64,000 bases of DNA from contig JAZRWI010000112.1 in NCBI GenBank assembly GCA_045599645.1, forward strand, positions 4,566 to 68,565, in the 5' to 3' direction. The position numbers were made by a program, and so were the translations under genes. Positions 14,217 through 58,355 of this stretch are shown here, piece by piece. Source of the stretch: Candidatus Avigastranaerophilus sp. GTDB taxonomy: Bacteria > Muiribacteriota > Ozemobacteria > Ozemobacterales > Ozemobacteraceae. The number at the start of each line of letters is the position of its first letter. Within the stretch, counting starts at the first letter, position 1. The notes under the pieces are model-generated. The model searched no databases. It was not told where the DNA came from and saw only the letters and a program-made list of their open reading frames with translations.

Positions 14217-14225
14217 TAGCATTTA

Positions 14226-40402: not shown

Positions 40403-41665
40403 TTAAATAAATTCGACAGGGACGGCAAATACCTCTGGAGATATAGCAATAGGCTTTGAGCAGTTGCAGATGATTATTCCGGTTTCTATCTGCATATTAT
40501 TGATTCTATTAGTGATATAGAAATTTTTGGCGTCTTCCGAATTTGGGGTAGCTGTTTTCTTTATTTCAATGGGATAAAGAGTATTATTCTGATAAATCAT
40601 CAGGTCTATTTCAACCTTATCTTTGTCTCTGTAAAAATAAATAGGTGCTTCAATCCCCTGGTTGGCAAATGATTTGATTATTTCACTCACTACGTAGGTT
40701 TCAAAAAAAGCTCCGCCCATAGCACCGGTTCTCATAACTTCAGGGCTGGTCCATCTTGTGAGATACGCAGCAAAACCTGTATCCATAAAATACAATTTTG
40801 GTGTCTTTACAATTCGCTTTTCAACATTAATGGAAAAAGGTTTAAGTAAATATACTAATCCTGAAGTAATGAGCAGGGATAACCATTTTTTTGCCGTTAC
40901 TTCACTGATTCCAACTTCTTTACCAAGATCGCCATAGTTTACTAATTGCCCGGTTCTTGAAGCAACGACGGTAATAAATTGCAGGAATTGCATTTCATCA
41001 GTTATTTGGGTAATTTTTCTGATGTCGCGTTCTATATAGGTTTTTAAATAATTTCCATAAAAATCGTTTGTATTTATTTTTCCCTTAACAACTTCTGGAT
41101 AACCTCCAGTAAAAATAGCTTTCCAGGTCTTATTAACGGAAGCTTCCTTACCTGATAAAGCTTTGCTTCTCTGAATAATGTATTTCTTTGATGGAAGAAA
41201 TGGCTTGTCAAATTTATCCTTTCTGATTTCTCTAGCAGATAGCGGATATAACTCTAACATACCTATACGGCCGGCAAGACTCTCTGTTGCTTTTTCCATG
41301 AGATTAAACGGCTGACTTCCGGTAAGGTAATACATTCCATTTTTTCTATTGCCATCTATATTCATTTTCAAGTAGCGGAATAATTCCGGAACGTATTGAA
41401 TTTCATCAAAAACATATGGACAAGGGTGCAATTCTAAGAAAGCCTTAGGATCTGATTTGGCAGATACTTCTTCTAATGGATCATCAAAAGTGAGATATTG
41501 AGCAGGCTTAATAGCCATCAAATTCTGCAAAAGAGTTGTCTTTCCTGTTTGTCTTGCTCCAGTAACAAGACAGGCAGGGAACTCCTTAGATAATCGTTTA
41601 ATAGTTGCCGTTGCATGTCTTTCTATAAATTTCACGAAACACCTCATGGGATAATCCAAAGTCAT
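40403..41665 (-). CDS. DUF4143-family AAA+ ATPase (copy 1)
   Basis: Walker A GARQTGKTT; C-terminal LYPIEIKK motif shared with the paralog at 54452-55675. Confidence 0.75.
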   Translation of the reverse strand: MTLDYPMRCFVKFIERHATATIKRLSKEFPACLVTGARQTGKTTLLQNLMAIKPAQYLTFDDPLEEVSAKSDPKAFLELHPCPYVFDEIQYVPELFRYLKMNIDGNRKNGMYYLTGSQPFNLMEKATESLAGRIGMLELYPLSAREIRKDKFDKPFLPSKKYIIQRSKALSGKEASVNKTWKAIFTGGYPEVVKGKINTNDFYGNYLKTYIERDIRKITQITDEMQFLQFITVVASRTGQLVNYGDLGKEVGISEVTAKKWLSLLITSGLVYLLKPFSINVEKRIVKTPKLYFMDTGFAAYLTRWTSPEVMRTGAMGGAFFETYVVSEIIKSFANQGIEAPIYFYRDKDKVEIDLMIYQNNTLYPIEIKKTATPNSEDAKNFYITNRINNMQIETGIIICNCSKPIAISPEVFAVPVEFI

Positions 41666-41708
41666 AGTTAATATTATCCCACAGCCCAGAAATTAGCAAG
41701 ATTTATTT

Positions 41709-41800
41709 CTACTTGCTTCCAATATACAAAAATACCAGAGCAAGCAATACAAGGAGCAGATCCAGAGCCTTAGACTTCAGGTTCTTTTCATGGAAAATCA
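41709..41800 (-). pseudogene. Orphan duplicate of the 3' end of the eamA gene (about 80% identical to 36753-36845)
   Basis: The ORF fragment ends ...IFHEKNLKSKALDLLLVLLALVFLYIGSK, versus eamA ...IFHEKNLRSKALDLILVLLALVFLYIGSK; the nucleotide alignment extends about 10 bp past the stop. Confidence 0.65.
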
Positions 41801-42364: not shown

Positions 42365-42583
42365 ATGAAAATAACTGATGCAACCTCCTTAGGAAACGCC
42401 ATTCGCGCACGAAGAAAAAAACTTAAATATACTCAGGGCTATATTTCCGAAATTACAGGTCTTAGCATAAGTTTTTTATCTGATCTTGAAAACGGGAAAC
42501 AAACTGCTGAAATCGGCAAAACAATCGAAGTAATCAATCTTCTCGGGTTGGATATTTTAGTAGAGGCAAGGGAAGATGAGTAA
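42365..42583 (+). CDS. hipB: HipB-like XRE-family HTH antitoxin
   Basis: 72-aa HTH_XRE protein; 8-nt overlap with the downstream HipA-like gene. Confidence 0.75.
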   Translation: MKITDATSLGNAIRARRKKLKYTQGYISEITGLSISFLSDLENGKQTAEIGKTIEVINLLGLDILVEAREDE

Positions 42584-43868
42584 TATTTCTTTAACGGTTC
42601 AGATTGAAATAAACGGAATGATGACAAAAGTTGGTTCAATTACAGGTACCAGCTATAAAGATGCTGTGTTTGCATACGATGAATCATATACAACTGATAA
42701 AAATCATCGTCCAATCTCCATCAGCCTTCCTTTCTCAAAGCAGGCTTTTACTTCAGATGCAACCAGAAATTATTTTGAGGGACTCTTACCTGAAGGTTTT
42801 ACCCGTAAAAGCATAGCAGAATCCATACATACAGACTTAGATGACTATATTTCAATTTTAAAAGAACTTGGTCGCGAATGTCTTGGTGCTATTCAAATTA
42901 TGGACGAATCCAATCAGACAACAGAAGAGAACTACAAAAAACTTACCCCAAAAGAAGTAAAGGCTTTGGCCGAAGAAGGTGCAAGTCTTGCGGTAAATCT
43001 TGTAATAGAGTCTCATCTCTCGCTTACAGGTGCTTCTGGGAAAACGGGTCTATACTATGATGAAAAAAAGAGGAAATGGTATCAACCGATAGGTTCTGCT
43101 CCTAGTAACTATATTGTAAAACAAAGTCATGTCCGGTTAAGCAACATTGTTGTAAATGAACAACTCTGTCTTCTAACAGCCAAGAAACTTGGAATAGAAA
43201 TACCAGACAGCTTCATCATCCAGACAAGGAAAAATAAAAGTAAAGACGCAGACATCTTATTTGCGACAAAAAGATTTGATAGATATGTTGACCGTGATTC
43301 AAGAGAATTGAACACTTTACCGATTCCTTACAGGCTCCATCAGGAGGATTTTGCACAGGCTCTTGGAATAAATTCTTCTAATAAATACGAAAAAGACGGT
43401 AAGCATTATTTAAAACAGATGTTCAATATCATCCGTTCATATTCCGCAAATCCTATCGAAGACCAATTTAAACTATGGCGAATTACAGTATTCAATTTTC
43501 TTATTGGCAATACTGACAATCACATAAAAAACTATTCACTTCTATATAGTAAAGATTTGCGAACTTTACGGCTTGCACCATGTTATGATGTAGTAAGTAC
43601 CAAAGTTTATAAAAATGATATAAATGAAATGTCTCTTAGTATTAATGAAAAATTAAACATGGATGAAGTTACACGAGCGGACTTTGAACTTGAGGCAAAA
43701 TCAGTTGGCCTTGGTGCTAAGTTTGCCATGAACATTTTTGATGAAGTCCAGAATGGACTGCTGGAAGCATTACAGGCAAGCGTAAGAGAACTGGAAGAAA
43801 AAGGTTTTACTCAAGCAGGTAATATCGCTAATAAAATTGAAAAAAATTTTAAACACAGAAAATCATAA
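42576..43868 (+). CDS. hipA: HipA-family Ser/Thr kinase toxin
   Basis: HipA N- and C-terminal domains; catalytic-loop motif IGNTDNHIKNYSLLY (D-H-KN). Confidence 0.8.
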   Translation: MSNISLTVQIEINGMMTKVGSITGTSYKDAVFAYDESYTTDKNHRPISISLPFSKQAFTSDATRNYFEGLLPEGFTRKSIAESIHTDLDDYISILKELGRECLGAIQIMDESNQTTEENYKKLTPKEVKALAEEGASLAVNLVIESHLSLTGASGKTGLYYDEKKRKWYQPIGSAPSNYIVKQSHVRLSNIVVNEQLCLLTAKKLGIEIPDSFIIQTRKNKSKDADILFATKRFDRYVDRDSRELNTLPIPYRLHQEDFAQALGINSSNKYEKDGKHYLKQMFNIIRSYSANPIEDQFKLWRITVFNFLIGNTDNHIKNYSLLYSKDLRTLRLAPCYDVVSTKVYKNDINEMSLSINEKLNMDEVTRADFELEAKSVGLGAKFAMNIFDEVQNGLLEALQASVRELEEKGFTQAGNIANKIEKNFKHRKS

Positions 43869-43882
43869 AAATGCTACCAGTA

Positions 43883-43934
43883 TAAAATAATGCAATTCTT
43901 TATTCGGCATATTCCCTCACAGAAGTATCTGAAT
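43883..43934. repeat. 52-bp sequence identical to the antitoxin/toxin gene junction at 56154-56205
   Basis: Exact match, base for base. It encodes the last codons of the DUF4065 antitoxin and the first 9 codons (MPNKELHYF) of the toxin, followed by a frame-terminating tail. Confidence 0.8.
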
Positions 43935-43941: not shown

Positions 43942-44331
43942 TTAACTAACATCAGAAACAAGAACATTTGTATCGATTACAGCATAATATGCCATACTAT
44001 TTTGTTTTTTTCTCACCATTTCTATTTCTGCGTTGATTTCTTCCAAGCCCATGTCACTTATGCCATTTTTCGCAGCTAACATGCTTGCAGCTTTCATGGC
44101 CGCCAAACCCTTGTTTCCTTTTTGCTGTAACTGTAATGGAAAAGGAACCCCATTGTCATGAACCAATCGCACAACGCATATACGCATATATGTTGGCAAA
44201 TCCATTCCTAACTGTTCACAAATGCTCATCGCCTTCGCTTTTAAAGAATCATCCATTCGAAATTGAACAAAAGAACTAGGCATATTCACCTCCAAACTAT
44301 ACCTAATATAATTATAACATTTTACAATCAA
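43942..44331 (-). pseudogene. Decayed type II TA locus: RelB/DinJ-like antitoxin fused in frame to the first 16 codons of a PIN-domain (VapC-like) toxin that is then truncated
   Basis: N-terminal FVQFRMDDSLKAKAMSICEQLGMDLPTYMRICVVRLV resembles RelB/DinJ; the C-terminus MAYYAVIDTNVLVSDVS* is a canonical PIN start (IDTNVL) that terminates abruptly beside the 52-bp repeat. Confidence 0.55.
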
Positions 44332-44579: not shown

Positions 44580-47324
44580 CTATTGCCAACCTTTCAACAA
44601 TTTTGCCAATTTTTCTTGTTTATCAAGAACAACTGCGCATTTATCCCAGTCTTCGGTAACAGGCGGCACAGATTCATATTTTAGAGCAAAAGCATTCTGT
44701 TTTGGTAAAGAATTAATTTTATTGCGCGCCTCAGCTTCGTTGTTTAAAGCAATATCAATCCAAACATCTTCTAGAGTATCTGGTATTTGTCCAAACATAT
44801 TGAATATATCGTTCAAACGACTTGATAACGCTTGATGAACTTTATCTTCTACAGAATCTTTATATCTCATGTTAAATATTCTTATAGTATTACTTAATTG
44901 CCCTATTCTCTGAATACGACCTTTTCTCTGTTCCAATCTTGTAGGATTCCAAGGTAAGTCCAAATTTATCAAAGTTGATAAAGTTTGTAGGTTTAAACCT
45001 TCACTTGCAGCATCAGTACCAACAAGTATTTTTATTTCATGATTTCTTACAGAGTCTTTTAAATCATCTTTTAACTTCTTTTCAAAAATGCCATTTACGA
45101 ACACCCCAGATTTATCGCCACCAGCATATAAACCAACTCTACAATCAGCAATATCTTTTGATAATGTTTCTGCAATATAACGAGCACTATCATAATATTG
45201 CGAGAAAATAATACAACCCCTATCTTTCCATGGCGTATTATCTTCTGTTATACCATTCAACAAAATATCCAATACTTTTGCATACTTTGGATCTTTATCT
45301 TTATTTAAGCTTAATACTTTTACTAAGTCCTCAAGACATTCAATTTCATCCGGAGTCAAGTTCTTGATTTCGCTTTGTTCTTCGTCTGTTTCATCATCTT
45401 CAAATTCAGTATCAAATTCATCCAAAAGAATTTGCCTACCTTCTTCTGTCCAGGCTAGCATTTTTTTGGCTGTGTTTTCTCCAGCAAGAATAGTACTACC
45501 AATACGTCTAAGCATAAGAGTAGACATAAATCCACCAGCCTTAACTCTTTTGGACAATAACTTACAAAACTCTTCTGCTTTTTCGTAACCTTGTCGGCAA
45601 TAACCTTCCAAAGCAATGGCATCGTCATTGTTTTCACCGAATAATTTAACTTCAATTTTTTGTAAATAAGGTAAACCAGTCTTAGGATTAATGCTATTTT
45701 CCAAAAATTCTCTAGTTCGTCTTACAATATGTCTTATATAGGGATTATATTTTTTTACAAATTCATCTGTTATATACAAATCCCTTAGTGAATTCCGGAT
45801 AGACATTCTGCAATCATTGAATAATGCAGCAGGTAAGACAAAATCATTATCACTTAAATCCAATTTATCACGCAAAGTTTTTATCTTAAATGATGTCTGG
45901 GTTTTATCTGGAAATGGATTTCTCATAATGTCCCACATCGTGACTTCACTTTCGGGAACAGGCTCTTTGCCACACACAATATCCAACATATGTTGGGGTT
46001 TTGTATTCCATTCGCTGTAAATATCTCCAAATACTTTCTCATTAGGCAATGCCAATGCGTGTAACAAGTCATAAGCCTCAATGGTATTTACTTGCACAGG
46101 CGTAGCTGTGGCAAGAAGCATACTCTTAGTTTTCATGCTTATTTCATTTAAAAAACGTAATAAGAAATTGCAATCCGCTTTATGATTATCAGGATCGCTG
46201 CTAGGATTTCTCCTTCTGGCCCTATGGCTTTCATCACATATAACACATTCATATTCTTGTTGTAGAAGTAAAGCAGATGCTTCTGTTCTACGTGCAACCA
46301 GACCTTGCGATACAATGCCTATTCTTCTAGGACATCTATGAATTGACTTTATTGATTCTGCCGGATAAAAATAACCTGATTCGTCTTGCCAACCTCTACC
46401 AGTCCAAACAGCACTTGGCATATCTAACAAATTTTTCATTTCATCCTGCCATTGAAAAACCAGAGTTTTTGGTACAATTATTAAAATTGGTTTTTCTCCA
46501 TATACGGCCATTAACTTTGCCGACATAGCAAGTTGAATAGTTTTACCAAGACCTACCTGGTCCGCCAACAAAAATCTAGCTCCACCTTCTTTTTGATGTT
46601 CTTTGAATGCAAGCTCTACAAAATATTTCTGATGATCCCAAAGTCCGAATTCTTTTCGAAAAACAGGTTCTTCAACAGCAATGGCAGGTATCTCAACCTC
46701 TTTTTCATTACGCCACTTTTCAAGGGGTATTATTACTCTTCTGGAAATTCTATCAATATCATCAATAATAGAATCGCTTAATGGTTTAGCATATTTATTA
46801 TTCCAAAAGAAATCAAATTCGTCTTGAACCCAGTTTATAGCCTCAATTGAGTCATCTTCCCATATCATTTCATAATTCAGTTTAAAAGCACTTTTTGTTT
46901 CGTTTATACTACCAATAAAACAGGTTTTAGAATCATCCTTGTATGTTATTATCCCAGCTTTTCCGTGCATTAAGCCATATATTTCGTCAGGTATTACTCT
47001 TATTTGCATTTTACCGCTTTTCAACAAACGATATAAACGAGCAAGTCTTTGAGAACTTTGTGGTGTCGAATATTCTTCTTCTGGTTTAAATCCACACCAT
47101 TCCTGTTTTATTCGCTGAGCCACTTCAATATCTTCTTTTGCCAAGCCGGAATTACATATTATGCGAATATTACCTTCTATAGACTCAATGCTTTCTCCTG
47201 CTACTTCCAATATTGAAGAACAGAAGTAACCAGCAATTCTATCGTATTTTTTGGCACCAACTAATTTTTTATTTAGAAAAGCCTCATCTAGCTTTTGTAA
47301 TCTTGATGAATAACGTTTAATCAC
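44580..47324 (-). CDS. PLD-family nuclease domain fused to SNF2/DEAD-like helicase (defence-operon gene 4)
   Basis: N-terminal HxK(x4)D-GSxN motif LMHGKAGIITYKDDSKTCFIGSINETKSAF; helicase motif I LADQVGLGKTIQ, motif II DESHRARR, helicase-C region LVGTDAASEGLNLQ and QRKGRIQRIGQ. Confidence 0.8.
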   Translation of the reverse strand: MIKRYSSRLQKLDEAFLNKKLVGAKKYDRIAGYFCSSILEVAGESIESIEGNIRIICNSGLAKEDIEVAQRIKQEWCGFKPEEEYSTPQSSQRLARLYRLLKSGKMQIRVIPDEIYGLMHGKAGIITYKDDSKTCFIGSINETKSAFKLNYEMIWEDDSIEAINWVQDEFDFFWNNKYAKPLSDSIIDDIDRISRRVIIPLEKWRNEKEVEIPAIAVEEPVFRKEFGLWDHQKYFVELAFKEHQKEGGARFLLADQVGLGKTIQLAMSAKLMAVYGEKPILIIVPKTLVFQWQDEMKNLLDMPSAVWTGRGWQDESGYFYPAESIKSIHRCPRRIGIVSQGLVARRTEASALLLQQEYECVICDESHRARRRNPSSDPDNHKADCNFLLRFLNEISMKTKSMLLATATPVQVNTIEAYDLLHALALPNEKVFGDIYSEWNTKPQHMLDIVCGKEPVPESEVTMWDIMRNPFPDKTQTSFKIKTLRDKLDLSDNDFVLPAALFNDCRMSIRNSLRDLYITDEFVKKYNPYIRHIVRRTREFLENSINPKTGLPYLQKIEVKLFGENNDDAIALEGYCRQGYEKAEEFCKLLSKRVKAGGFMSTLMLRRIGSTILAGENTAKKMLAWTEEGRQILLDEFDTEFEDDETDEEQSEIKNLTPDEIECLEDLVKVLSLNKDKDPKYAKVLDILLNGITEDNTPWKDRGCIIFSQYYDSARYIAETLSKDIADCRVGLYAGGDKSGVFVNGIFEKKLKDDLKDSVRNHEIKILVGTDAASEGLNLQTLSTLINLDLPWNPTRLEQRKGRIQRIGQLSNTIRIFNMRYKDSVEDKVHQALSSRLNDIFNMFGQIPDTLEDVWIDIALNNEAEARNKINSLPKQNAFALKYESVPPVTEDWDKCAVVLDKQEKLAKLLKGWQ

Positions 47325-47343
47325 AACTAACCTCCAATAATTC

Positions 47344-50238
47344 TTATATACTATCGTGAGTTACCATAGACAGCAGCATTTCTGCCATTTCACCGCATTC
47401 TGCCCAATGTGACTTCATATTATCAATGTCTTTTACGTCACAAAGGAAAGCCAAAATCTGCTTTATCATTTCTCGCTTTTCCCAATAGCTTAAACCTATT
47501 TCGCTTTTTATATAATTCAATGCTGTAGCAGGTTTATTATCGTCTTTTATACCAGCATAAATGCCTGCAAAAACAATTCTTGTTATTGATTTTTCAAAAT
47601 CAGGTATTTCATTTATTGTTCTGGCACCTAATTCATAAGGAGTCTTCAACCTAGCAGTATTTGCCTTTTCGCTAGCCATTAACTGAGAATAGCCACCGAT
47701 AGAAAAACCACGTGCAAATTCCTGATAAGTACTTATTTGGTAATCGCCATGCTTTTCTGATTCCAAACCTTTAATATAGAATTTTTCAGAATTTGTTAGT
47801 TCCTTCCAAAGTAAACTTTCAAAATTTATAGGAATAACACAGTCATAAGCAATTTTCTTTGCATTTTCAATAATGGAAACAATCTTACTTCCAGCTGGAT
47901 TCTTTATAGCCTGATTTAATTCAAAATCCAAATCAAGGTCTTCTATTGAAGAATAAGAAGTCAAAACTTTTAAAGAAGCCGCATAAGCAGCCAATACATA
48001 ATCTGGGTCAGAAAAATTGGGTTCTTCTTTATCATCTAATTTCTGCATGCTATCAATTTGATTCTTTACTTCCGACCTTATATCAGCATTTATTTCATCC
48101 AAGAAAGCACAATCACTACCTGTCTGTTTTCTTAATACAAGCAATACAGTGCCTTTTACATAATTGCCTTTTTTAAGACCCGAAGCATCTGTTTCCGTTG
48201 CTATATTCCATGCTGCAGTAACCTTTAAACCTGCTTTCCACATTATAACCGCTAATTGTGCCCAAACGGCAGGGTCACTATGAGTAAACATAACAACTTG
48301 CATACCGTCATCAGGCATGTGTTTTGCAAGATTAGAATAAATTTCAATCATTGCATGAGAAAAATTATCATCACCTTTTATTGCCAAAATTCTCTTGCTA
48401 TCAGTATACCATTCCGGGAAAGCCTTTTTTAGTAATTCTTTGTCCCAAGCTAGAAAATATTCAGACAATTCATGATAATTAACTGCATCTGCATAAGGTG
48501 GATCCGTAACCCAAAAATCGCAATTATTATCTATATTTCTTGCATCAATTAGTTCTACCTCGCTAAATTTATTAGTATTATAACAATTTACTGACCAATT
48601 CCAAACTTCCCTTAGCATATAAAAACTACGCTCACCCCAATTAACCATGGGATTTAAAGCTTGATTGTAAAAAGTATTTGTCGAAATATCAACTGATGCA
48701 GCCCAGCTGCAGAGCTTTGAAGCAAAATCAGAACATTTATTTAAACCAAGTGCCCCAACTACAATAAACTTGGGGTCATCTGAATTTAAAATATATTTAT
48801 TTAATAAGCTTAAATAAAGCAAATGTCTTGCCCCAAACAATTGATGCCAATACTTCCAACCTCGTTCTCTGATAATCTGATCTGTATTATAACCACTTTC
48901 AATGCAAGAACTTGGAATGAGACCATCAAATTGCCAATCCTTCAAATTATCAGCAACAATACTCCTTATTTTTTCCTCATTCCTCAAATCAAATTCATCT
49001 GGTTTTTTATAATATCTACTTTTATCGTTTCGTAAATATCTTATCGCGTATAACCGTTCAGTGAATACATCATCATTCGAATAACAATATTCTTTTTGAT
49101 CTAGTTTTCTAATACCACTAATTATCTGACCATTTTCGTCCCACTTATCACCACGAATTTTATTAATGGGTGTCGTTTTTCCACAATTTGGACAAAATAC
49201 AATACCTTTGAAAAAGGTATGATTGTTCTCTGCTTTTTTAAAAGCCATTTCACTCACATTGGACAAAATTTCAATATCAAAACAATTTTTATTCTCATTC
49301 TTTTTCAATTCAAGAACAACTCTACCTGCTCTTTTACCTACCACAAAAGAAGATAATAACGGTATCTTTACTCCACATTCGGGGCAAATTGTTTCATTAC
49401 AAAATAAATAGCCTAAAGCTTGATGACCTTCATTACTTAAATCTATTCCCAACTCTTTTATATCTTTTTCAACTTTTGAATAAATATCATTTTGAAAATA
49501 ATGTATTTTATCTAATTCTTTATTAGAAACACCACATACATTTATGCTAGCCCAAGTAAGTAAACCTGCTATAGGATTTAAATCACTAGCCAAAGATTGA
49601 CACCCAATTCTCGCAGCTTCAAAAGGTATTGAGCCACCACCACAAAAACAATCACCAACTTTTACAGTATGACCAAATCTTTTTATAGATAATTCTTCAA
49701 CTAATTCGGGCAATGAATGTGCGCTAGTATGCAAATGTTGGTTAACTTCGTTCCAGGTTTGTTCACTTAAATTGTTGAGATGTTCAGGCCTCATGCACAT
49801 TGCTAACTTATCATCTATAGATAATGTTTCAAAGCAACTCTTTTCTATGTCTGTTCTTGGTGAATCTTTTTCTAATTTAACCTTACCTTTTTCATCAACC
49901 TTAAAAAACTTAAGATATTGATTAGACAACTTTTTATTGCTACGAACTATTTCATAAAGCTCTTTGAGAGTAAAATTCTTTTCCTTACGTAGCCAAAGTC
50001 CTTCTTTATCCATTGAAAGCAACTTTTGAAAGATTTCCATATCTTTCTTTGGATTATCAGAAGAAGGCATTAAGCAACCTAATATTGCGGCTCTTACCAG
50101 AATAAGAGGCTTTCTTCCCCACCAACGTCCCATTCCTGTTAATGTTTGACTTTGAACAGCTTTTCTTTCTTTATAGCTTTCTTTGCTTATTTTACTCACT
50201 GGAAATTGTTTTTCTATGAATGATATCTGATTATTCAT
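47344..50238 (-). CDS. DUF1156-type N6-adenine DNA methyltransferase (PglX-like; defence-operon gene 3)
   Basis: 964 aa; SAM motif I FCGGGSIPFEAARIG; catalytic motif IV DPPY (WVTDPPYADAVNY); N-terminus typical of DUF1156 proteins (QTLTGMGRWWGRKP). Confidence 0.75.
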   Translation of the reverse strand: MNNQISFIEKQFPVSKISKESYKERKAVQSQTLTGMGRWWGRKPLILVRAAILGCLMPSSDNPKKDMEIFQKLLSMDKEGLWLRKEKNFTLKELYEIVRSNKKLSNQYLKFFKVDEKGKVKLEKDSPRTDIEKSCFETLSIDDKLAMCMRPEHLNNLSEQTWNEVNQHLHTSAHSLPELVEELSIKRFGHTVKVGDCFCGGGSIPFEAARIGCQSLASDLNPIAGLLTWASINVCGVSNKELDKIHYFQNDIYSKVEKDIKELGIDLSNEGHQALGYLFCNETICPECGVKIPLLSSFVVGKRAGRVVLELKKNENKNCFDIEILSNVSEMAFKKAENNHTFFKGIVFCPNCGKTTPINKIRGDKWDENGQIISGIRKLDQKEYCYSNDDVFTERLYAIRYLRNDKSRYYKKPDEFDLRNEEKIRSIVADNLKDWQFDGLIPSSCIESGYNTDQIIRERGWKYWHQLFGARHLLYLSLLNKYILNSDDPKFIVVGALGLNKCSDFASKLCSWAASVDISTNTFYNQALNPMVNWGERSFYMLREVWNWSVNCYNTNKFSEVELIDARNIDNNCDFWVTDPPYADAVNYHELSEYFLAWDKELLKKAFPEWYTDSKRILAIKGDDNFSHAMIEIYSNLAKHMPDDGMQVVMFTHSDPAVWAQLAVIMWKAGLKVTAAWNIATETDASGLKKGNYVKGTVLLVLRKQTGSDCAFLDEINADIRSEVKNQIDSMQKLDDKEEPNFSDPDYVLAAYAASLKVLTSYSSIEDLDLDFELNQAIKNPAGSKIVSIIENAKKIAYDCVIPINFESLLWKELTNSEKFYIKGLESEKHGDYQISTYQEFARGFSIGGYSQLMASEKANTARLKTPYELGARTINEIPDFEKSITRIVFAGIYAGIKDDNKPATALNYIKSEIGLSYWEKREMIKQILAFLCDVKDIDNMKSHWAECGEMAEMLLSMVTHDSI

Positions 50239-50782
50239 TTTTTTCTTCTCCTAAATAATCCATAAGTAGTTGATTGAACTCGTTGACAGGGTTATCACAA
50301 AGAATAAATTTCAAAGCCATCCGCCAACCTCTTTTGTTGTTGTAAATGTCACCAGTACTGGCATTTGTCATGGTGTAAAGCCACCATCGTTCTTCGGGAG
50401 TTAAACCTAGCCAGTTTCTTATAGCTACTGGTATGCCTGCAACCTCATTATTTTCAATACCCCACAAAAGAATCATCAATTCTTTTCCCATTAATTTCTC
50501 TACAGGGGTTCCACCAACAACAAATTTACCAACAAGCTTCTTTTCTGCTTTCAGCCTGCTATTAAACTCAGCAGTAACATTCTTTACAACCTTTACCCAT
50601 CTTGAATAAGTTATTTTAAGCTTAAGAACATCTTTTTGTTCACTTATTTGTTGTTCACCTTCATGCTCCCAATGAAACCTTTCATAAATTTCAATATCTT
50701 TGCGCCCACCAGGATTAACAACATAAAAATGGTTTTCTGTTTCAGAAGGGTTAAAACCAAATCCAATGAATTCCTTTTTCAT
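50231..50782 (-). CDS. DUF3780-like small protein (defence-operon gene 2)
   Basis: 183 aa; overlaps both neighbours by 4-8 nt (translational coupling). Family call rests on size, position and recollection of the DUF499-DUF3780-DUF1156 gene neighbourhood. Confidence 0.5.
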   Translation of the reverse strand: MKKEFIGFGFNPSETENHFYVVNPGGRKDIEIYERFHWEHEGEQQISEQKDVLKLKITYSRWVKVVKNVTAEFNSRLKAEKKLVGKFVVGGTPVEKLMGKELMILLWGIENNEVAGIPVAIRNWLGLTPEERWWLYTMTNASTGDIYNNKRGWRMALKFILCDNPVNEFNQLLMDYLGEEKNE

Positions 50783-53700
50783 TGGATAATTTCTCCGTTC
50801 TTTTTCAGATTATCAAGATCAACCTTACTTAACTCTACCCAGTCATTAAAATTCTGACCTGTTCTGAAAATCAACTCTTTGTATTCAAAAGTTACGGTTG
50901 TATCTTTGCCTTCAAGGCTTGTTTCCCTGATTTTATCTATTAATTGCTGCAATATAATTGGTTTATATGCTACATTAGCGGCACATTCAACATAGGCAGC
51001 TTCATCCTGCTTATCATAAACATATATAGTAGTATTCTTAATTTGTAAACCGTCTATCTTACTGAGCAATTCTAATTCTTTATAGCTTGTTTCCGTATCC
51101 GATAACTGTTTCTTGCTTTTCATTTTGTAAACGAGTGTTTTGTTTACATCAACAGAAAAAACGGCTTCAGCGTCTTCGTTAGTTATCTCAATATCTCTAG
51201 CATCAATTACTTGGCCTTTAAACAAAGTAACAGTTCTTACATATTTACAGTCTTTGGGTAGAACTATTTCCCCATTATACAAGCCGCCATTTTCTTTGGG
51301 TTCACTCCCGTCGGTTGTATATCTAATTTCATAGTTATCATTAGCTTGTAATGTCAATACTCTGCCATTAGGCGTGGTTCTTTGTTCATATTTTGTTGGC
51401 GCCTTACATACAAACTCAACAACACGTCCGGTTTTTCTTTCTTTGTTCGGGTCGATGCACACAAAGTTTGCACAAGGTTCCTTTGTGACAAAAACACTGT
51501 CATTCAATTCTGTAGATGCTTCGGTTGGGTCAGCACCAACATCATAGTAAACACGGCCGCCAACACCTTTTACACGCAAAGTGAATTCCTGAGTCTTTTC
51601 ATCATAATATGTCTGCGTAACAGAAACACTGGTTGGTTCTTTTTCAAAAGGCCCCTTTACCAAATATCCACTGATTTCTCTCCATTTGTCCTTTTTAATA
51701 CAATCAGCACGCAAACTATCTAACTGATCAGGATGATACCATTGCCAAGAGGTTTCTGTTGCAGCTCTATCACAAATCTGTGAATAGGTCATTTCTTTTG
51801 TAGTAAAAAGACGTGCTTCACATTTCTTACGCATGGTTTCCAGGAAATTGTCATCCTTAGAAAATTCTTCGTATTTCATGTTGCTTTTTAAGAGTTTAAT
51901 AATCTGGTCTTCGCCATCAAATTTATTATCTTTAAACTCTAATTTAAAATCAGCTGAGGTAATCCCATTCTTGGTGGGATAATATAAGCTGACAAATGTT
52001 TCACGTATTGTTGAAAATAAGGCCTGTGTCGCTTTGTCTACCTGAGCTTCAGCTTCTTTATATTGCTGGTCCAGTGCTGAAATTCCTTCGCTTTTCATTG
52101 TTTCAATAATAGTTTTTATTGCCTTTAGCTTTTTACTATTAATGAAAAGCTTTTCCATTACACTTCGTTCCCCCGACAAGAACATTACTCTGTTTTTCTG
52201 TGACTTTCCGTTATAGAATTCCATCAATTCAGGATGTAATTTATTGCCAGGATATGGCTCGTAGATTACCAAAGATATTTTTTTATTATCTAAATTTATT
52301 TCATCAATTGCAGGCAAAACATATAACTGTTCATAGCATGTTTTTAATTTTGGACTGAAATTTTCACTCAAAATACCCTTTAATTCTTTTCTTGCATTAT
52401 CATTAGTATAAGAATCAATCAAGGTATTCATTTCTGCCACCATGTTTTTGGTGTTCTGAAAATACAAACGACCTCTATTATCTGTCTTGATATACCAACA
52501 AAGTGACTTTAATTCTTCTAAGCAACTCTTTACACTATCAATATCTACATCTGGAGCACTCATAAAGCCCAAAACTTCTGGTTCGGTTAAACCTAACAAT
52601 GCGTGATGTACTGTAGAAAGCGAAGAGACAAGAAGTAGTTTTGCTACTTGTTGCGCATTTTCACCTTTTTCTGGTCTATCGTAGTCAATCAATTCTGCAA
52701 CAGATTTCTTTGATTGAGAAATGTCATGGCTTATTGCTTCTTCCAATTCAGGTTTTATCTGCCTAAATATGGACATCATGTTTGGATTGTTAAGGTCGAC
52801 ATCGAAAACATTTATTAAATAAGATGTGTCTGCTTTTTTGCTTTCAAAAAACTGACGGACAATCTGGCGCATCAGTTTAATAAGACCACGTGTCTGTTGA
52901 AAATTCTGATTTTCTTTAAATCTTGCATATAACTCTTTTATAGAAGGGTGAAACGGGTATGAATCAATAATACCTTTATAAACTGCTTCACCTGTATATG
53001 ACGTAAAGCCTAGATTTTTAGATTTGGATACAGCTTCTTTAAAAGCAATTGCGATTTCATTTTTTTGCCCTGAATAATCAACAGGTATCGGATCGTCTTT
53101 AAATAAACGCTTACGTAAAATAGAATAAACTTCATCACTGTTTAGGGCAACAGGTGCTATTTCTAAGGCTACACGATTGGCTTCTCCTTCCAATTCTTTA
53201 AAGCTGGATTGAAGGAGTTCACTACCAGATTCATAAGCAGCCCTTAAATCAGAAAATACTAAACAAACGTTAGATAACTGCGCTTTGCCTAATGCACTGA
53301 ATAAATTAGCTAGGGCAGTCATTGTAACCTTGCTTAAATCAGAATTACCAATGGTAATTGAACGGGCATTTTCCAAGTAAGGTGGTAATTCGTCAAACAA
53401 AAGCAGAATTTTATCATTCTGTAATAAATTAATCCAAGACTTTTCACCAGGTGCTCTTAGTGGTGAATAATATTCACTAAACAATTCTTTTTTGCCGAGT
53501 TGTTCTGCTATACTACCCCAAATACCATATTCAGCATTTTCCCTTCCCGAGAAAGTTATAACCTTTATTTTTCCAATATCTTTGTATTTGGGCCCAAGTA
53601 TCTTTGTTCTTAATTCAACGTTTTCAGCCAACAAAGCCAATGCCAACATACTATGAGTTTTACCACCACCCATAGCCTGAGTTAATTTTATTACCCCAGT

Positions 53701-53895
53701 ATCTGATTCGCCTAAAAAACGTTTAAACGCAGTATCAAACAACATACCCATACCCTGAGTCTTATAGTTTTCAGAAAAGAATTTTTCAGCGTCAATTCTA
53801 CCTTCGCCATAGTCTGAAAGATTTAAAGTATCTTCTCTTGTTGTATCTTGGAAAACAGATTCACGGGGTTTAAGCATCTGAGCAATGGCTTTCAT
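50779..53895 (-). CDS. DUF499-family AAA+ ATPase (BrxC/PglY-like; defence-operon gene 1)
   Basis: 1038 aa; Walker A LTQAMGGGKTHSMLALALLA; Walker B LLLFDELPPYL; a large alpha-helical C-terminal region typical of BrxC/PglY-like proteins. Confidence 0.7.
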   Translation of the reverse strand: MKAIAQMLKPRESVFQDTTREDTLNLSDYGEGRIDAEKFFSENYKTQGMGMLFDTAFKRFLGESDTGVIKLTQAMGGGKTHSMLALALLAENVELRTKILGPKYKDIGKIKVITFSGRENAEYGIWGSIAEQLGKKELFSEYYSPLRAPGEKSWINLLQNDKILLLFDELPPYLENARSITIGNSDLSKVTMTALANLFSALGKAQLSNVCLVFSDLRAAYESGSELLQSSFKELEGEANRVALEIAPVALNSDEVYSILRKRLFKDDPIPVDYSGQKNEIAIAFKEAVSKSKNLGFTSYTGEAVYKGIIDSYPFHPSIKELYARFKENQNFQQTRGLIKLMRQIVRQFFESKKADTSYLINVFDVDLNNPNMMSIFRQIKPELEEAISHDISQSKKSVAELIDYDRPEKGENAQQVAKLLLVSSLSTVHHALLGLTEPEVLGFMSAPDVDIDSVKSCLEELKSLCWYIKTDNRGRLYFQNTKNMVAEMNTLIDSYTNDNARKELKGILSENFSPKLKTCYEQLYVLPAIDEINLDNKKISLVIYEPYPGNKLHPELMEFYNGKSQKNRVMFLSGERSVMEKLFINSKKLKAIKTIIETMKSEGISALDQQYKEAEAQVDKATQALFSTIRETFVSLYYPTKNGITSADFKLEFKDNKFDGEDQIIKLLKSNMKYEEFSKDDNFLETMRKKCEARLFTTKEMTYSQICDRAATETSWQWYHPDQLDSLRADCIKKDKWREISGYLVKGPFEKEPTSVSVTQTYYDEKTQEFTLRVKGVGGRVYYDVGADPTEASTELNDSVFVTKEPCANFVCIDPNKERKTGRVVEFVCKAPTKYEQRTTPNGRVLTLQANDNYEIRYTTDGSEPKENGGLYNGEIVLPKDCKYVRTVTLFKGQVIDARDIEITNEDAEAVFSVDVNKTLVYKMKSKKQLSDTETSYKELELLSKIDGLQIKNTTIYVYDKQDEAAYVECAANVAYKPIILQQLIDKIRETSLEGKDTTVTFEYKELIFRTGQNFNDWVELSKVDLDNLKKNGEIIQ

Positions 53896-53935
53896 AAACT
53901 CAATCCTTTATTTTTAGTTGTATTAGCCAAGCCCA

Positions 53936-53985
53936 TTAACTCAAAAGAGTTAATGAGCTTTATCATCTTAACTCTTTTGAGTTAA
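53936..53985. promoter_or_regulatory. Pair of mutually reverse-complementary 18-bp palindromes (TTAACTCAAAAGAGTTAA / TTAACTCTTTTGAGTTAA) in the divergent promoter between the defence operon and the XRE regulator
   Basis: 53936-53953 and 53968-53985; each is itself near-palindromic, and they are separated by 14 bp. Confidence 0.55.
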
Positions 53986-54037
53986 TTTTTGCAACAAAAA
54001 ATTGCCTATGATGTACCGTACATTGGAGAAAAACAAT

Positions 54038-54280
54038 ATGGACATAGGCGAAGCCGTAAAACTAAGAATACAAGAGCTTTTAGATGAGCGTAAAATTACA
54101 TTGAATCATCTAAGTTATTTATGCGGCATTACTCAATCCACGCTCAACAACATAATAAGCGGAAGAAATAAGGGTACAACCATTACTACAATAAAAAAGA
54201 TATGCGATGGTCTTGATATAACAATTATTCAGTTTTTTGAATCCAAGCTTTTTGAAAAATTAGACCAGGAAATCAAATAA
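54038..54280 (+). CDS. XRE-family HTH transcriptional regulator
   Basis: HTH_XRE signature ITLNHLSYLCGITQSTLNNIISGRNKGTTITTIKKICDGL. ATG at 54038 has a GGAG RBS; the ORF-track start at 54002 is a TTG. Confidence 0.7.
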   Translation: MDIGEAVKLRIQELLDERKITLNHLSYLCGITQSTLNNIISGRNKGTTITTIKKICDGLDITIIQFFESKLFEKLDQEIK

Positions 54281-54451: not shown

Positions 54452-55675
54452 ATGTATATTTATAGGCATGTTGAGCCAACAATCAAAAAACTGGCAAAAA
54501 TGTTTGGCGCTGTTTTGGTCGCAGGGCCAAGACAAGTTGGGAAAACAACTACACTTAAAGTAGTGACCAAAAACATAAACTACATATCTCTTGATGATCC
54601 AATATTATTGGCCAGTGCCTTAGACACAACAATTACATTTTTTAAGGACAATCCCCCACCAGTCTTTGTAGACGAAGTTCAAAAGGCTGCCAACCTCTTT
54701 CCTCAGATTAAACTCTATATCGATGAAATCAAAAAAAAGGGATTGTTCTTTTTATGCGGTTCTCAGCAATTCCAAATGATGAAAAACGTAAGCGAATCTC
54801 TTTCCGGCAGATTAGGCCTAGTAACATTACTCGGTTTGTCAATGCGCGAAAAATACAACTGCAGATTTACCGATGCCTTTATTCCAACAGACGATTATTT
54901 TGCAAAACGACGTAAGCAATTCAAAGAAATCACTTATTCTGATGTATGGGAAAATATACACCGCGGTAGCATGCCTGAACTATACTCTAACCCGGATTTT
55001 GACTGGCAAATGTTTTATGGGGCATACGTCAGAACCTATATAGAACGTGACGTTAGAGAATTAGCCAATATTGGTGATGAAGTGAAATTCACCAGATTCA
55101 TGACAGTCTTAGCCTCAAGAACAGGCCAACTGCTAAACCTTAATTCAGTAGCCAATGATGTTGGAATAAGCCAGCCGACTGCTGACAGATGGCTATCTAT
55201 TCTTATTGCTTCCAACATAGTTTATTTGTTAAAACCCTATTACAACAATCTAACCAAGAGACTGATAAAAGCACCAAAACTTTATTTTCTAGATACAGGT
55301 CTTGCTGCATATCTTACGAAGTGGAACACCTCTGAAGTCTTAAGAAATGGAGCGATGGCCGGAGAATTCTTTGAAAGCTTTGTCATATCAGAAATTATTA
55401 AAAGCTATTACAATCAGGGAATCTTAGAACCACCTATTTATTTTTATCGAGACAAAGAAATGAAAGAAATAGACTTGCTCATAGAGCAGGGGGACACACT
55501 ATACCCCATAGAAATTAAGAAGCACGCTGACCCCACAGTTAAAGATATAGACAACTTCAAGGTTCTTGACAATATGAAAGGAATAAAGCGTGGTTCCGGC
55601 GGCGTAATATGCACCTATGACAAGCTTATAACCCTCAAGGGCAACGACCGAATAATCCCGATAACCCACATATAA
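54452..55675 (+). CDS. DUF4143-family AAA+ ATPase (copy 2)
   Basis: Walker A GPRQVGKTTT; paralog of 40403-41665 across the full length (shared FFE.....SEIIKS and LYPIEIKK motifs). Confidence 0.75.
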   Translation: MYIYRHVEPTIKKLAKMFGAVLVAGPRQVGKTTTLKVVTKNINYISLDDPILLASALDTTITFFKDNPPPVFVDEVQKAANLFPQIKLYIDEIKKKGLFFLCGSQQFQMMKNVSESLSGRLGLVTLLGLSMREKYNCRFTDAFIPTDDYFAKRRKQFKEITYSDVWENIHRGSMPELYSNPDFDWQMFYGAYVRTYIERDVRELANIGDEVKFTRFMTVLASRTGQLLNLNSVANDVGISQPTADRWLSILIASNIVYLLKPYYNNLTKRLIKAPKLYFLDTGLAAYLTKWNTSEVLRNGAMAGEFFESFVISEIIKSYYNQGILEPPIYFYRDKEMKEIDLLIEQGDTLYPIEIKKHADPTVKDIDNFKVLDNMKGIKRGSGGVICTYDKLITLKGNDRIIPITHI

Positions 55676-55804: not shown

Positions 55805-56182
55805 TCATAATGATTCTAGAAATTGTTTTAAGCGATAACGGTCTTCGTTTTCTTTATCGCCTTTAAAATATATTTCAACGAATGTTATTTTTAGAGCTTC
55901 TGGCTCAAAAACAAAAATAACTCTGATACCTGTTCGGTTACCGAGGTTTTTTAAGGCCATGCAAGCAAATTTTCTAACCTTCAAGGATTCATAATTTTCT
56001 GAACAATAACCTTCTATAGGAACAAAAGCTATAGTTGGAACACCTTTTAAATAATGAGTTTCAAGAGAATATTTTTTCATTATTTCGAAATCTTTTGGAA
56101 GTGTTCTAAATCTTTTTTGAAGCCGCTTGAAATCCTTTTCAAATTCTGGAATTGTAAAATAATGCAATTCTTTATTCGGCAT
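55805..56182 (-). CDS. Type II toxin (125 aa; RelE/ParE/HigB-like fold suspected), translationally overlapped with the upstream antitoxin
   Basis: Small basic ORF that overlaps the antitoxin stop by 11 nt. No definitive family motif is visible, so the toxin role is inferred from context. Confidence 0.5.
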   Translation of the reverse strand: MPNKELHYFTIPEFEKDFKRLQKRFRTLPKDFEIMKKYSLETHYLKGVPTIAFVPIEGYCSENYESLKVRKFACMALKNLGNRTGIRVIFVFEPEALKITFVEIYFKGDKENEDRYRLKQFLESL

Positions 56183-56933
56183 ATTCCCTCACAGAAGTAT
56201 CTGAATTTCTGTAGAAAACGGCTTCATAATCAATTATTTCTTTATCATTAGCACCAATCCAGGGAATATCTTTATGGGAATAATCAGATAATTCTTTGGC
56301 ACTTTTATGACCATATTTTTCTATGGTTTTATTTATGTGAGCAAGCTCTGTTCCTGAAAGGAAAGACAGATCTGCCTCAACTAACGGCAAATACTTAGTC
56401 ATATCGTGAGTGAATCTTTTTGTTTTTACAATTTCAATTTCTCCAGATTTTTCCATTTCCTTTGTCAGTCGAGCAAAATCTACAGGAGTAGGTCCAAAGG
56501 TATTTTTTATATAAACAAGCCCCATAAGCTGTTTTTCATATAATTCGTAAAAGTCAAAATCAATAAAGTAAAGAATCTTATATAAAACAGTCTGACCAAC
56601 ATTAGGTCTTGCACCTATTTTATTTATTATATAAAGAAATACCTGTTTAAATTTTTTGATATTATTAGAAGGGATGTTTATCCTAAAATCAATGTCTGTA
56701 GCATCTTCTTTGACAACATTATATTCAACCTGCTGTGGCAATTTATTATCAATTATACAACGATAATCGACTTCAAATAACCGTGATAAAGCCTTTATTA
56801 CATCAACAGTCGGCTTTGTTTCAAGATTTTCATATTTCAAATACGTCTGTCGTGAAACGCCTATTTTTTCAGCAACCTCACTCTGCTGCAAACCAGCTTC
56901 TTCCCTTAAGTTTTTTAAGACTGACTTAATCAT
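56172..56933 (-). CDS. XRE-HTH::DUF4065 (Panacea/SocA-like) antitoxin
   Basis: N-terminal HTH_XRE (LQQSEVAEKIGVSRQTYLKYENLETKPTVDVIKALSRLF); the C-terminal ~150 aa resembles DUF4065 phage-associated antitoxin domains. Confidence 0.6.
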   Translation of the reverse strand: MIKSVLKNLREEAGLQQSEVAEKIGVSRQTYLKYENLETKPTVDVIKALSRLFEVDYRCIIDNKLPQQVEYNVVKEDATDIDFRINIPSNNIKKFKQVFLYIINKIGARPNVGQTVLYKILYFIDFDFYELYEKQLMGLVYIKNTFGPTPVDFARLTKEMEKSGEIEIVKTKRFTHDMTKYLPLVEADLSFLSGTELAHINKTIEKYGHKSAKELSDYSHKDIPWIGANDKEIIDYEAVFYRNSDTSVREYAE

Positions 56934-57026: not shown

Positions 57027-58355
57027 TTATTGTTCTGAGAACTTGAAATACAACTCGCCATAAGAGCGATTATTGCTGGGGATTCCGAATTCATAATAGA
57101 ATTTATCATGATAAAGAGTGTAACCGTTTACTTCAAAGAATTTGTATGGTTTACCGGTAATTCTATCAATCGGTAATGATTGCCCAAACCATTTTTCTAA
57201 TTCTTCCATAGAAGCAGGAACACGTCCGTTTTCTGCATGGAAGGAATTGTAGGCCAGAGCAATTGCGGTAAATTCCATTTTTGCGAGTTTCATTTCGACA
57301 GAAGCAATAAAGCTGTTGAAGTCAGGAATCATAAGCACTAATTCATTTCCAATATCAATTATGGGGAAGAATGTCGTATATAATATTGCTGCTATTCCTT
57401 TTTTTGATCTTGAAGGATCATTTATATCATCATAAAAAACCTTAAAATATTTTTGTAATTCATTTTTATATTCATAGTATTTTTTATTATCTATACTTTC
57501 CATGAATTCCGTATAAATTTTCGATTTGCTTTTCCATTCACTACTTAATAAAGCCAATATTGCAGAAATATTACAACGTTTTGCCAGGCTTTTTACATAA
57601 CGTTCAAATATTAGTAACTGTAGTTTCATAGATTCGGAAACTGGTGGTTCATTTGCCACCAACAGAAGCAGGTCTTTTGCCAGCAATTTACTATATTTTG
57701 CAGAATTTTTCTGTGGCTTTTCAGCCCATTGAAGCAATTCATTAATTGAAGCTGATACATAATTGCTGCACAGTAATCTATAAAGCTGAAGCATACCAGT
57801 CTGGTAATTATTCTGAGAATCTAAGGCTATATAAATGGGTGCATAGGCAGTGAGTAATGATTCTGTATCGAAACCTTCCCGTCTCAAAAGAATGCTTACA
57901 TGAGCCCACATTCTTGCAGTTGTCCTAAAAATCACAGACTTAGGCATACCCGGTAGTTTGTTTAATTCATCGAAACTGCGTTTATTATATTCCTTAGGTT
58001 CGTCTATGCGACTTAAAACATACTTAGGAAAATCAGTTTTATATTTTCCATAGTTTTCAGGGATAAAATCATCTTTGCGTTTACCCTGCCTGTCAGTTTG
58101 TTCATTTCTTGTTTTTGCAGTAACGGTTCTATCTGTAAGTTTAAATTCTAGATTTCTATCATCTGAATAGTATTCTCTTACATCTTCCGGGATAGCATCT
58201 ATTTTTTGAAATTCTTTGTCAAAGAAAGCAGTTTTAATCTGGCCTTCCGAACTATAAAATGCTTTCAAGAAAGCTATTTTCTGATAATGTAGTATTATTC
58301 CGGCAAAAAAGAAGAATAAAAATATTCCCCAAAATATCATTCTTTTACGTGACAT
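57027..58355 (-). CDS. Hypothetical N-terminally membrane-anchored alpha-helical protein (442 aa), no recognisable domain
   Basis: Single N-terminal TM (IFWGIFLFFFFAGIIL); the rest is helical and K/E-rich with no motif hit. Confidence 0.5.
   Translation of the reverse strand: MSRKRMIFWGIFLFFFFAGIILHYQKIAFLKAFYSSEGQIKTAFFDKEFQKIDAIPEDVREYYSDDRNLEFKLTDRTVTAKTRNEQTDRQGKRKDDFIPENYGKYKTDFPKYVLSRIDEPKEYNKRSFDELNKLPGMPKSVIFRTTARMWAHVSILLRREGFDTESLLTAYAPIYIALDSQNNYQTGMLQLYRLLCSNYVSASINELLQWAEKPQKNSAKYSKLLAKDLLLLVANEPPVSESMKLQLLIFERYVKSLAKRCNISAILALLSSEWKSKSKIYTEFMESIDNKKYYEYKNELQKYFKVFYDDINDPSRSKKGIAAILYTTFFPIIDIGNELVLMIPDFNSFIASVEMKLAKMEFTAIALAYNSFHAENGRVPASMEELEKWFGQSLPIDRITGKPYKFFEVNGYTLYHDKFYYEFGIPSNNRSYGELYFKFSEQ

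Follow-up and report, generated by a model that had tools for sequence, protein, structure and literature searches.

A probable, divergent MANTIS (Type-2 BREX-related) defence operon in a contig of Candidatus Avigastranaerophilus sp.

Four adjoining genes on the minus strand of contig JAZRWI010000112.1 of Candidatus Avigastranaerophilus sp. (assembly GCA_045599645.1) encode an ATPase, a small protein of the DUF3780 family, a DNA methyltransferase and a helicase fused to a phospholipase D-like (PLD) nuclease. They lie at positions 44580-53895 of the 64,000-nt stretch that was analysed as a whole (the window), and they raise the question of whether the operon is an uncharacterised variant of the BREX defence systems or a copy of a system already described. 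A preliminary description, made from the letters of the DNA, had suggested that it may be a minimal or variant methylation-dependent defence system and could not confirm that this exact architecture had been characterised experimentally. The analysis presented here indicates with high confidence, on the strength of protein comparisons, that the locus is a complete and apparently functional MANTIS system (synonyms Gao_RL, Gao_29 and Type-2 DUF499-centred BREX-related), with the genes in the order mtsA-mtsB-mtsC-mtsD. The operon is a divergent further example of an already described system and not a new kind.

Gene content and identity of the operon

Open reading frame (ORF) calling revealed four intact, co-directional ORFs, all on the minus strand (Table 1), and all four are full length when compared with more than 50 homologues (coverage 1.00). 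Two of the three junctions are overlapping and the third is tightly spaced, as evident from the 4 nt (ATGA) shared by the mtsA stop and the mtsB start, the 8-nt overlap between the mtsB stop and the mtsC start, and the 19-nt spacer between mtsC and mtsD. The ORFs, domains and named motifs of the four minus-strand genes are thus as first described; the end of the operon is not, as it had been placed at 53985, which is 90 nt past the mtsA start codon (53895) and inside the upstream control region. That coordinate is either a digit slip or a deliberate inclusion of the promoter.

MtsA matches Pfam DUF499 (E-value 3e-24) and carries an Fn3_assoc/CHB_HEX_C beta-sandwich at residues 844-890. Its motifs comprise a GGGKT Walker A (K79), H81, an LLLFDE Walker B (E169), an arginine finger (R241) and a sensor-2 arginine (R336). 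The reading of this protein as an AAA+ ATPase with Walker A and B motifs holds good, whereas its attribution to the BrxC/PglY type does not, since the DUF499 ATPases form a sister group and MtsA matches the PADLOC profiles of DUF499 and HmaC but none of those for the BrxC/PglY (DUF6079-type) ATPase. MtsB matches Pfam DUF3780 (4e-44), in agreement with the small DUF3780 protein expected at this position. MtsD combines PLDc_2 (6e-13) with SNF2-rel_dom (1e-15) and Helicase_C (1.5e-16), which bears out the proposed SNF2 helicase with an N-terminal PLD module; it displays a single HxK motif (H120/K122), GSIN138, GLGKT at 258-262 (K261), DESH at 364 and a helicase motif VI, QRKGRIQRIGQ, at 799.

MtsC matches Pfam DUF1156 (2.5e-22, residues 11-72) and has an FCGGG motif I at 198-202 and a DPPY motif IV at 579-582. 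Its layout is that of a group-alpha enzyme, in which motif I is followed by the target recognition domain (TRD) and then by motif IV, behind a DUF1156 N-terminus. A DUF1156-type N6-adenine methyltransferase with a DPPY motif had been correctly recognised here, but not its kinship to PglX, because group-alpha MtsC resembles the PglXI of BREX type 3 while the PglX of classical BREX belongs to group-gamma. Conservation profiles of 50-69 homologues show a variable central block in MtsC (residues 221-560), which fits a TRD between motifs I and IV, and a hypervariable C-terminal tail in MtsA (881-1038), the most variable segment. A variable MtsC TRD and a variable MtsA C-terminus have both been described for the family (PMC12839542; bioRxiv 10.64898/2026.09.23.753747, hereafter the MANTIS preprint).

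The assignment to a particular system is carried by profiles built for the whole set. PADLOC includes consecutive models for such a set (DUF1156_MTase, DUF3780, DUF499 and PLD_Helicase; PDLC02189-93), which we take, partly from published synonymy, to be those of the system named GAO_29. The four proteins match them end to end: MtsA with PDLC02192 (DUF499, 4.6e-177), MtsB with PDLC02191 (DUF3780, 7.6e-40), MtsC with PDLC02189 (DUF1156_MTase, 4.4e-257) and MtsD with PDLC02193 (PLD_Helicase, 5.7e-242). NCBIfam likewise holds four consecutive equivalog models (NF042961-NF042964), named 'anti-phage-associated' for DUF3780, DUF499 and DUF1156 and 'phospholipase D-like domain-containing anti-phage protein' for the fourth, and each of the Mts proteins spans its model end to end. 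MtsC scores 1229 bits with NF042963, above the cut-off of 1000 bits, and MtsD scores 1241 bits with NF042964, above the cut-off of 1100 bits; the full-length pass of the latter equivalog model fixes the family of MtsD. Searches of PDB sequences with MtsA, MtsB and MtsC matched no MANTIS chain, and MtsD retrieved generic SNF2 ATPases only (RapA, 3e-14).

The family to which these profiles lead has been met under three names. According to the MANTIS preprint, Gao et al. 2020 (Science 369:1077) tested the system as Gao_RL/Gao_29, 'restriction-like'. Rakesh and Krishnan (NAR 2026, PMC12839542) defined 'BREX-Related' (BR) systems centred on DUF499 in a purely computational study and recorded Type 2 in 1120 taxa, with a standalone DUF3780 protein in 98%, an HKD nuclease instead of TUDOR at the helicase N-terminus in 83%, and FnIII-like domains ahead of the variable DUF499 C-terminus in 53%. 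The window locus fits every listed synapomorphy of Type 2 (standalone DUF3780, HKD in place of TUDOR, DUF1156 on the methyltransferase and an FnIII-like beta-sandwich), and no substantive difference from it was found. MANTIS (MtsA-D) is the newest name of the same system, given in the preprint of 24 September 2026 on the genetics, biochemistry and structures of the P. aeruginosa system, with strain AZPAE15024 as the reference (bioRxiv 10.64898/2026.09.23.753747). A PglZ-less, BREX-related, methylation-dependent defence system with a PLD-helicase as its effector, as first proposed for this locus, is therefore how the literature describes the gene set (PMC12839542; MANTIS preprint). The supposition that the architecture might be uncharacterised is overturned by the same preprint and, as reported there, by Gao et al. 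2020.

The P. aeruginosa system has the same four genes, order and domain architecture as the window. Residues were compared through the annotated four-gene operon of Pseudomonas fluorescens plasmid pG69, a close relative of P. aeruginosa MANTIS whose residue numbering equals that of the preprint for MtsA, MtsB and MtsD. The window proteins are 31, 37, 39 and 40% identical to those of pG69 in full-length global alignments, and every residue mutated in the MANTIS study, mapped in this way, is conserved. In MtsA, K80, H82, E174, R244 and R336 of pG69 correspond to K79, H81, E169, R241 and R336 of the window; in MtsD, H122 and K260 correspond to H120 and K261; in MtsC, the FxGGG motif I and DPPY are kept. 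The residues of the MtsB interface E156, W159, S167, G177 and D188 are found as E131, W134, S142, G152 and D163, and A190 is replaced by P165. The conserved set includes the catalytic residues reported to be required, namely the Walker A and B motifs of MtsA, the DPPY of MtsC, and the HKD histidine and helicase Walker A of MtsD (bioRxiv 10.64898/2026.09.23.753747). MtsB is shorter in the window (183 aa against 216 aa in P. aeruginosa), as is MtsC (964 aa against 1015 aa); the latter difference implies a different TRD and presumably another target site.

The gene order is also a property of the relatives. Homologues of DUF3780 were aligned and one genome per GTDB species was scanned, which yielded 468 stretches with a relative; 80 loci were taken with 10-kb flanks. 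When these were searched by tblastn with the four window proteins, the order ATPase, DUF3780, methyltransferase and PLD-helicase on one strand was observed in essentially every locus with enough flank, and 51 of the 80 loci hold all four genes. De novo clustering of the ORFs gave four conserved families, present in 75, 69, 68 and 51 loci, and no fifth core gene family among the neighbours in the 80 loci; the three next commonest families occur in 5 loci each, a count which for the DUF4143 family includes the window.

Several observations weigh against this identification or against its transfer in detail. MtsA scores 721 bits with NF042962 (DUF499_antiphage), under the 1200-bit cut-off, and MtsB scores 144 bits with NF042961, under the 200-bit cut-off; these are strict equivalog cut-offs, for which proteobacterial members probably served as the training set, and the lower scores point to a window copy from a divergent clade. 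At 31-40% identity, the mechanism could depart from that in Pseudomonas in details such as the length of the site, the preferred orientation and whether MtsB is needed. The Pseudomonas system is furthermore accompanied by an Arc/CopG repressor, MtsR, whereas the window has a divergent XRE gene and twin palindromes. The MANTIS report is a preprint, and cleavage by MtsD was not reconstituted in vitro in it, so that the restriction step is a model even for the reference system.

Expected mechanism and alternative readings

A working scheme for the operon can be transferred by homology from the P. aeruginosa system. The central TRD of MtsC would recognise a short asymmetric site, but MtsC would not be able to load on DNA unaided; loading on the site would fall to the AAA+ ATPase MtsA, an MtsB dimer would stimulate methyl transfer by MtsC, and ATP hydrolysis by MtsA would give turnover. 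The host genome would thereby become N6-adenine hemimethylated at MtsC sites. Unmodified sites on incoming DNA would be recognised by the same MtsABC assembly, which would license an MtsD dimer, in which two single-HKD halves would form one composite PLD active site atop two superfamily 2 (SF2) motors. MtsD probably translocates and cuts where it runs into a second occupied site, and restriction would therefore be far stronger on unmodified sites in inverted pairs than on direct repeats or single sites. In the reference system, hemimethylation of an asymmetric site of ~6 bp depends on MtsABC, and phages and plasmids are restricted only when all four genes are present, and preferentially at inverted pairs of sites (bioRxiv 10.64898/2026.09.23.753747). 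Methylation, a recognition sequence and phage restriction may be expected at the window locus by analogy.

The predicted effector has parallels outside the family. SauUSI (Type IV, PDB 7CLG) and BfiI-type enzymes possess a dimeric PLD site made of two single HKD motifs and coupled to an SF2 motor, and the MANTIS preprint reports that MtsD is structurally similar to these single-HKD nucleases. The window MtsD shares the single HKD motif. SauUSI is, however, autonomous and targets modified DNA, whereas MtsD needs MtsABC and targets unmodified DNA.

Among the alternatives, the one that survives best, though it is still improbable, is that the operon is an inactive relic in a decaying island. Its surroundings carry recombination scars and truncated genes, for example a RelB-like ORF with a PIN-like stub, and no mobility gene was seen. 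The four ORFs are nevertheless undiminished in length against their homologues, all catalytic motifs are intact and the overlapping start and stop codons are kept, which makes decay unlikely.

Much less room is left for a canonical BREX fragment or a minimal form, for instance of type 3, relying on a PglZ that is encoded elsewhere or has been lost. The trio of ATPase, methyltransferase and SNF2 helicase does mirror the BrxC, PglXI and BrxHII of BREX type 3 (BrxC, PglXI, BrxHII, PglZ, BrxA, BrxF) and is homologous to it, both systems hemimethylate short asymmetric sites, and weak PADLOC matches were recorded to PglXI (2e-13) and, in the helicase core only, to BrxHI/HII (5e-40). The DUF499, DUF3780, DUF1156 and PLD_Helicase set of PADLOC, however, fits better by hundreds of bits, and the DUF499 ATPases fall in clades apart from BrxC (PMC12839542). 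BREX depends on PglZ and on proteins like BrxA/BrxB, and no nuclease effector is known for it, whereas the window helicase carries a fused PLD nuclease.

The search for the missing BREX components leads to the same conclusion. Pfam and PADLOC scans, which took in the main ORFs up to 10 kb to either side and most of the remaining large ORFs in the window, found no PglZ, BrxA, BrxB or BrxL; outside these scans lay the genes of the dcw cluster, the second of the pullulanase paralogues and a few ORFs between 5.6 and 11.4 kb. The absence of PglZ, BrxA and BrxL within 10 kb, as first claimed, is upheld to this extent, and PglZ is not among the recurrent neighbours in the 80 related loci, where no fifth family is conserved at all. 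In the reference system, moreover, the four genes alone restrict phage (bioRxiv 10.64898/2026.09.23.753747). The reading as a BREX fragment is largely refuted by these results and can be given hardly any weight.

Equally slight is the chance that the locus belongs to Hma, or Type-1 BR, a system of ATPase, methylase and helicase with a C-terminal PD-(D/E)xK nuclease, of which HmaA has been tested in Halomonas (PMC11232893). Type-1 and Type-2 BR are sister subtypes that share the DUF499 ATPase, the DUF1156 methylase and the SNF2 helicase-nuclease; Type 1 is devoid of DUF3780, its helicase bears TUDOR at the N-terminus and a PD-(D/E)xK nuclease at the C-terminus, and its ATPase often carries HEPN (PMC12839542). 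PADLOC matches were recorded to HmaA-helicase (8.5e-37), HmaB-methylase (1.4e-27) and HmaC-ATPase (1.2e-47), but these are partial and far weaker than those to the Type-2-specific profiles. The standalone DUF3780 gene and the N-terminal HKD/PLD of the window helicase, in place of TUDOR and a C-terminal restriction endonuclease, are defining features of Type 2.

The least probable of all is a mis-assigned DISARM-like or conventional ATP-dependent restriction-modification system (Type I, III or ISP), since the DrmD profiles that match the C-terminal half of MtsD (3e-42 in PADLOC; 163 bits with NF038317 against a 610-bit cut-off) and the DrmA matches are partial and confined to its helicase core, neither a DrmA nor a DrmB (DUF1998) protein accompanies them, and, although the site-orientation logic of MANTIS is like that of Type III/ISP enzymes (MANTIS preprint), the locus lacks HsdS, HsdM and any Res/Mod architecture and the system-specific equivalog models fit instead.

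Variation among related loci and phage-borne mtsB

Around MANTIS operons the recurrent neighbours, as identified by Pfam, are Schlafen/AlbA_2-HATPase_c_4 proteins, GmrSD, nucleotidyltransferases, integrases, recombinases, AAA_21/OLD ATPases and a relaxase, which are other defence genes and mobile-element genes. Extra genes are also found within some of the operons, usually between mtsC and mtsD, and encode an AAA_21 ATPase or a Schlafen-AlbA_2/HATPase_c_4 protein (loci L051, L052 and L059 at about 13500-14500, L066 and L069 at about 13600-15300, L054 and L076). These insertions fit the 'auxiliary effector' idea of PMC12839542.

MtsB is unusually well conserved for a small defence protein, with 55-69% identity across phyla in its alignment (A1). 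Residues 122-144 form an invariant RNW-GL-PEERWWLYTMTNA block, which holds the published dimer-interface residues. AlphaFold2, given an alignment of 20 sequences, produced a poor MtsB model (pLDDT 53) of four strands followed by six helices.

Phages and prophages also carry the DUF3780 gene without its operon partners mtsA, mtsC and mtsD. Two GTDB loci and six IMG/VR loci of this kind were noted (L036, 9620-10531; L037, 10001-10540; L083, 9878-10555; L084, 31-558; L097, 9998-10471; also L098 and L099), and genes for terminase, portal, head, primase and tape-measure proteins mark two of them (L083 and L097) as true phage genomes. The solo MtsB proteins of the Firmicutes type retain the signature motifs and share 64-67% identity with the MtsB encoded in the operon of Blautia schinkii. 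In the cultured Proteus phage vB_PvuS_Pm34 (KY420199.1; L103, 7338-8480) the solo copy is gp4, which is 67% identical to pG69 MtsB. The adjoining gp5 matches the final 174 residues of MtsA with 63% identity, and the homology to MtsA extends 18 codons upstream of the gp5 start, up to a stop codon (equivalent to residues 847-1038). From the extent of homology in gp5 and gp4, Pm34 holds a 1.14-kb piece comprising the 3' end of mtsA and an intact mtsB, with no mtsC.

Because unrelated phages captured mtsB independently, a counter-defence role of the phage gene is suggested as a hypothesis. The solo protein may act as an anti-MANTIS decoy, or it may be a Ral-like stimulator with which host MtsAC would methylate the phage DNA. 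Anti-MANTIS mechanisms still to be discovered have been inferred by the authors of MANTIS (bioRxiv 10.64898/2026.09.23.753747), and solo phage mtsB is mentioned neither in that preprint nor in PMC12839542.

Control region, genomic surroundings and significance

The region shared by mtsA and the divergent XRE-family gene contains two perfect 18-bp palindromes of the form TTAACTC-N4-GAGTTAA (Table 1). The window has no other match to this form; two or more matches appeared somewhere in 8 of 100 whole-window shuffles, so that the count alone is not decisive. A scan for promoter and terminator consensus sequences returned fewer sites than in shuffled sequence and none in the control region. The layout resembles the operator pair of a C-protein-like controller, and control by the XRE protein via the palindromes may be inferred. 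Such regulation is not described for the MANTIS family.

The presence of an XRE neighbour, stated at the outset, is confirmed by its Pfam match. That it is a dedicated regulator is plausible at this locus, as the twin palindromes lie in the shared intergenic region, but it is no conserved part of the system. The XRE gene is a singleton in the neighbourhood clustering, and in the fetched loci neither it nor the palindrome recurs, save for one weak tblastn match in L082. Upstream of mtsA in 55 loci no conserved regulator was found; unrelated small HTH (helix-turn-helix) families occur there in 2 to 6 loci each. As a joint proposal, it is tentatively suggested, as something possible rather than likely, that this clade is run by a C-protein-like XRE protein acting on twin operators, or that MtsB is the component that phages exploit, as a decoy or in a Ral-like manner.

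Table 1. Positions of the operon, its control region and neighbouring features in the 64,000-nt window
Feature	Position	Strand	Description
mtsA	50779-53895	-	1038 aa; DUF499 AAA+ (ORC/Cdc6-clade) ATPase
mtsB	50231-50782	-	183 aa; standalone DUF3780 protein
mtsC	47344-50238	-	964 aa; DUF1156 N-terminal domain and group-alpha N6-adenine DNA methyltransferase
mtsD	44580-47324	-	914 aa, GTG start; N-terminal single-HKD PLD nuclease and SF2/SNF2 helicase-like ATPase
GGAGG ribosome-binding site	47331-47335	-	6 nt before the mtsD GTG, within the mtsC-mtsD spacer; read from sequence
Divergent mtsA/XRE control region	53896-54001	.	106 nt; two perfect 18-bp palindromes, putative operators
Palindromes TTAACTC-N4-GAGTTAA	53936-53953 and 53968-53985	.	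32 bp centre to centre
XRE-family HTH_26 gene	54002-54280	+	divergent from the operon; Pfam HTH_26 1.5e-12; putative local controller; true start may be an internal ATG, e.g. 54038
HipBA pair	42365-43868		
RelB-like ORF	43942-44331	-	next to convergent hipA
AAA_14+DUF4143 ATPase paralogue 1	40403-41665	-	PADLOC candidate PDC-S01, 1e-108
AAA_14+DUF4143 ATPase paralogue 2	54452-55675	+	PADLOC candidate PDC-S01, 3e-98
HTH + SocA/Panacea antitoxin	56172-56933	-	overlaps the 125-aa partner
Panacea partner ORF	55805-56182	-	125 aa; no Pfam, NCBIfam or PADLOC match
Direct repeat pair 1	36749-36844 and 41705-41800		duplicated 3' end of EamA transporter gene
Direct repeat pair 2	38921-38994 and 56317-56390		displaced fragment of Panacea toxin-antitoxin module
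Direct repeat pair 3	43869-43934 and 56141-56206		66 nt, 91% identical; displaced fragment of Panacea toxin-antitoxin module
MurE	27682-29157		
442-aa ORF	57027-58355	-	no Pfam, NCBIfam or PADLOC match; N-terminus hydrophobic by eye
2956-aa giant ORF	14633-23503	-	no PADLOC match

The context rich in toxin-antitoxin genes, as given in the preliminary description, was recovered in Pfam scans, which identified HipBA, the RelB-like ORF and the HTH-Panacea antitoxin with its partner. The RelB-like ORF ends in 'MAYYAVIDTNVLVSDVS', which by eye is like the N-terminus of a PIN/VapC toxin, and the ORF looks like an antitoxin followed by a truncated toxin stub. The partner of the Panacea antitoxin may be an as yet undescribed toxin from a toxin-antitoxin pair of the PanA type. 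Two AAA_14+DUF4143 ATPase paralogues, about 75% identical over 95 nt, flank the stretch from HipBA to the XRE gene in inverted orientation, and the same family adjoins MANTIS in 4 other loci. Beyond these modules, two large ORFs, one of 442 aa and a giant one of 2956 aa, were also noted (Table 1).

Three direct repeat pairs, 82-91% identical, are recombination scars, and the 66-nt repeats bracket a 12.27-kb segment which holds the operon. No single simple integration event fits the order in which the copies lie. The operon has a GC content of 33-35%, against 38-44% in the stretch of housekeeping and cell-division genes at 25-36 kb. The best named relatives of MurE are from Candidatus Riflebacteria, Rifleibacterium and Ozemobacter (62-64%), with metagenome contigs reaching up to 89%, whereas the Mts proteins have their nearest matches in Firmicutes (Butyrivibrio, Oscillospiraceae), at 58-75% identity and about 70% for the operon. 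The Firmicutes affinity and low GC of the operon, beside a Riflebacteria-like MurE, suggest horizontal acquisition.

The principal outcome is a correction: the possibly uncharacterised BREX variant is an instance of a known system. It had been tested in 2020, its classification followed in January 2026 and its mechanism was dissected in September 2026. The range of MANTIS is extended to a Riflebacteria-like uncultured lineage, in which the TRD is divergent, presumably along with the specificity, and a different putative regulator is accompanied by clean candidate operators. Real discovery potential lies only in the solo mtsB of phages, whose repeated carriage stands beside the anti-MANTIS mechanisms inferred in the preprint.

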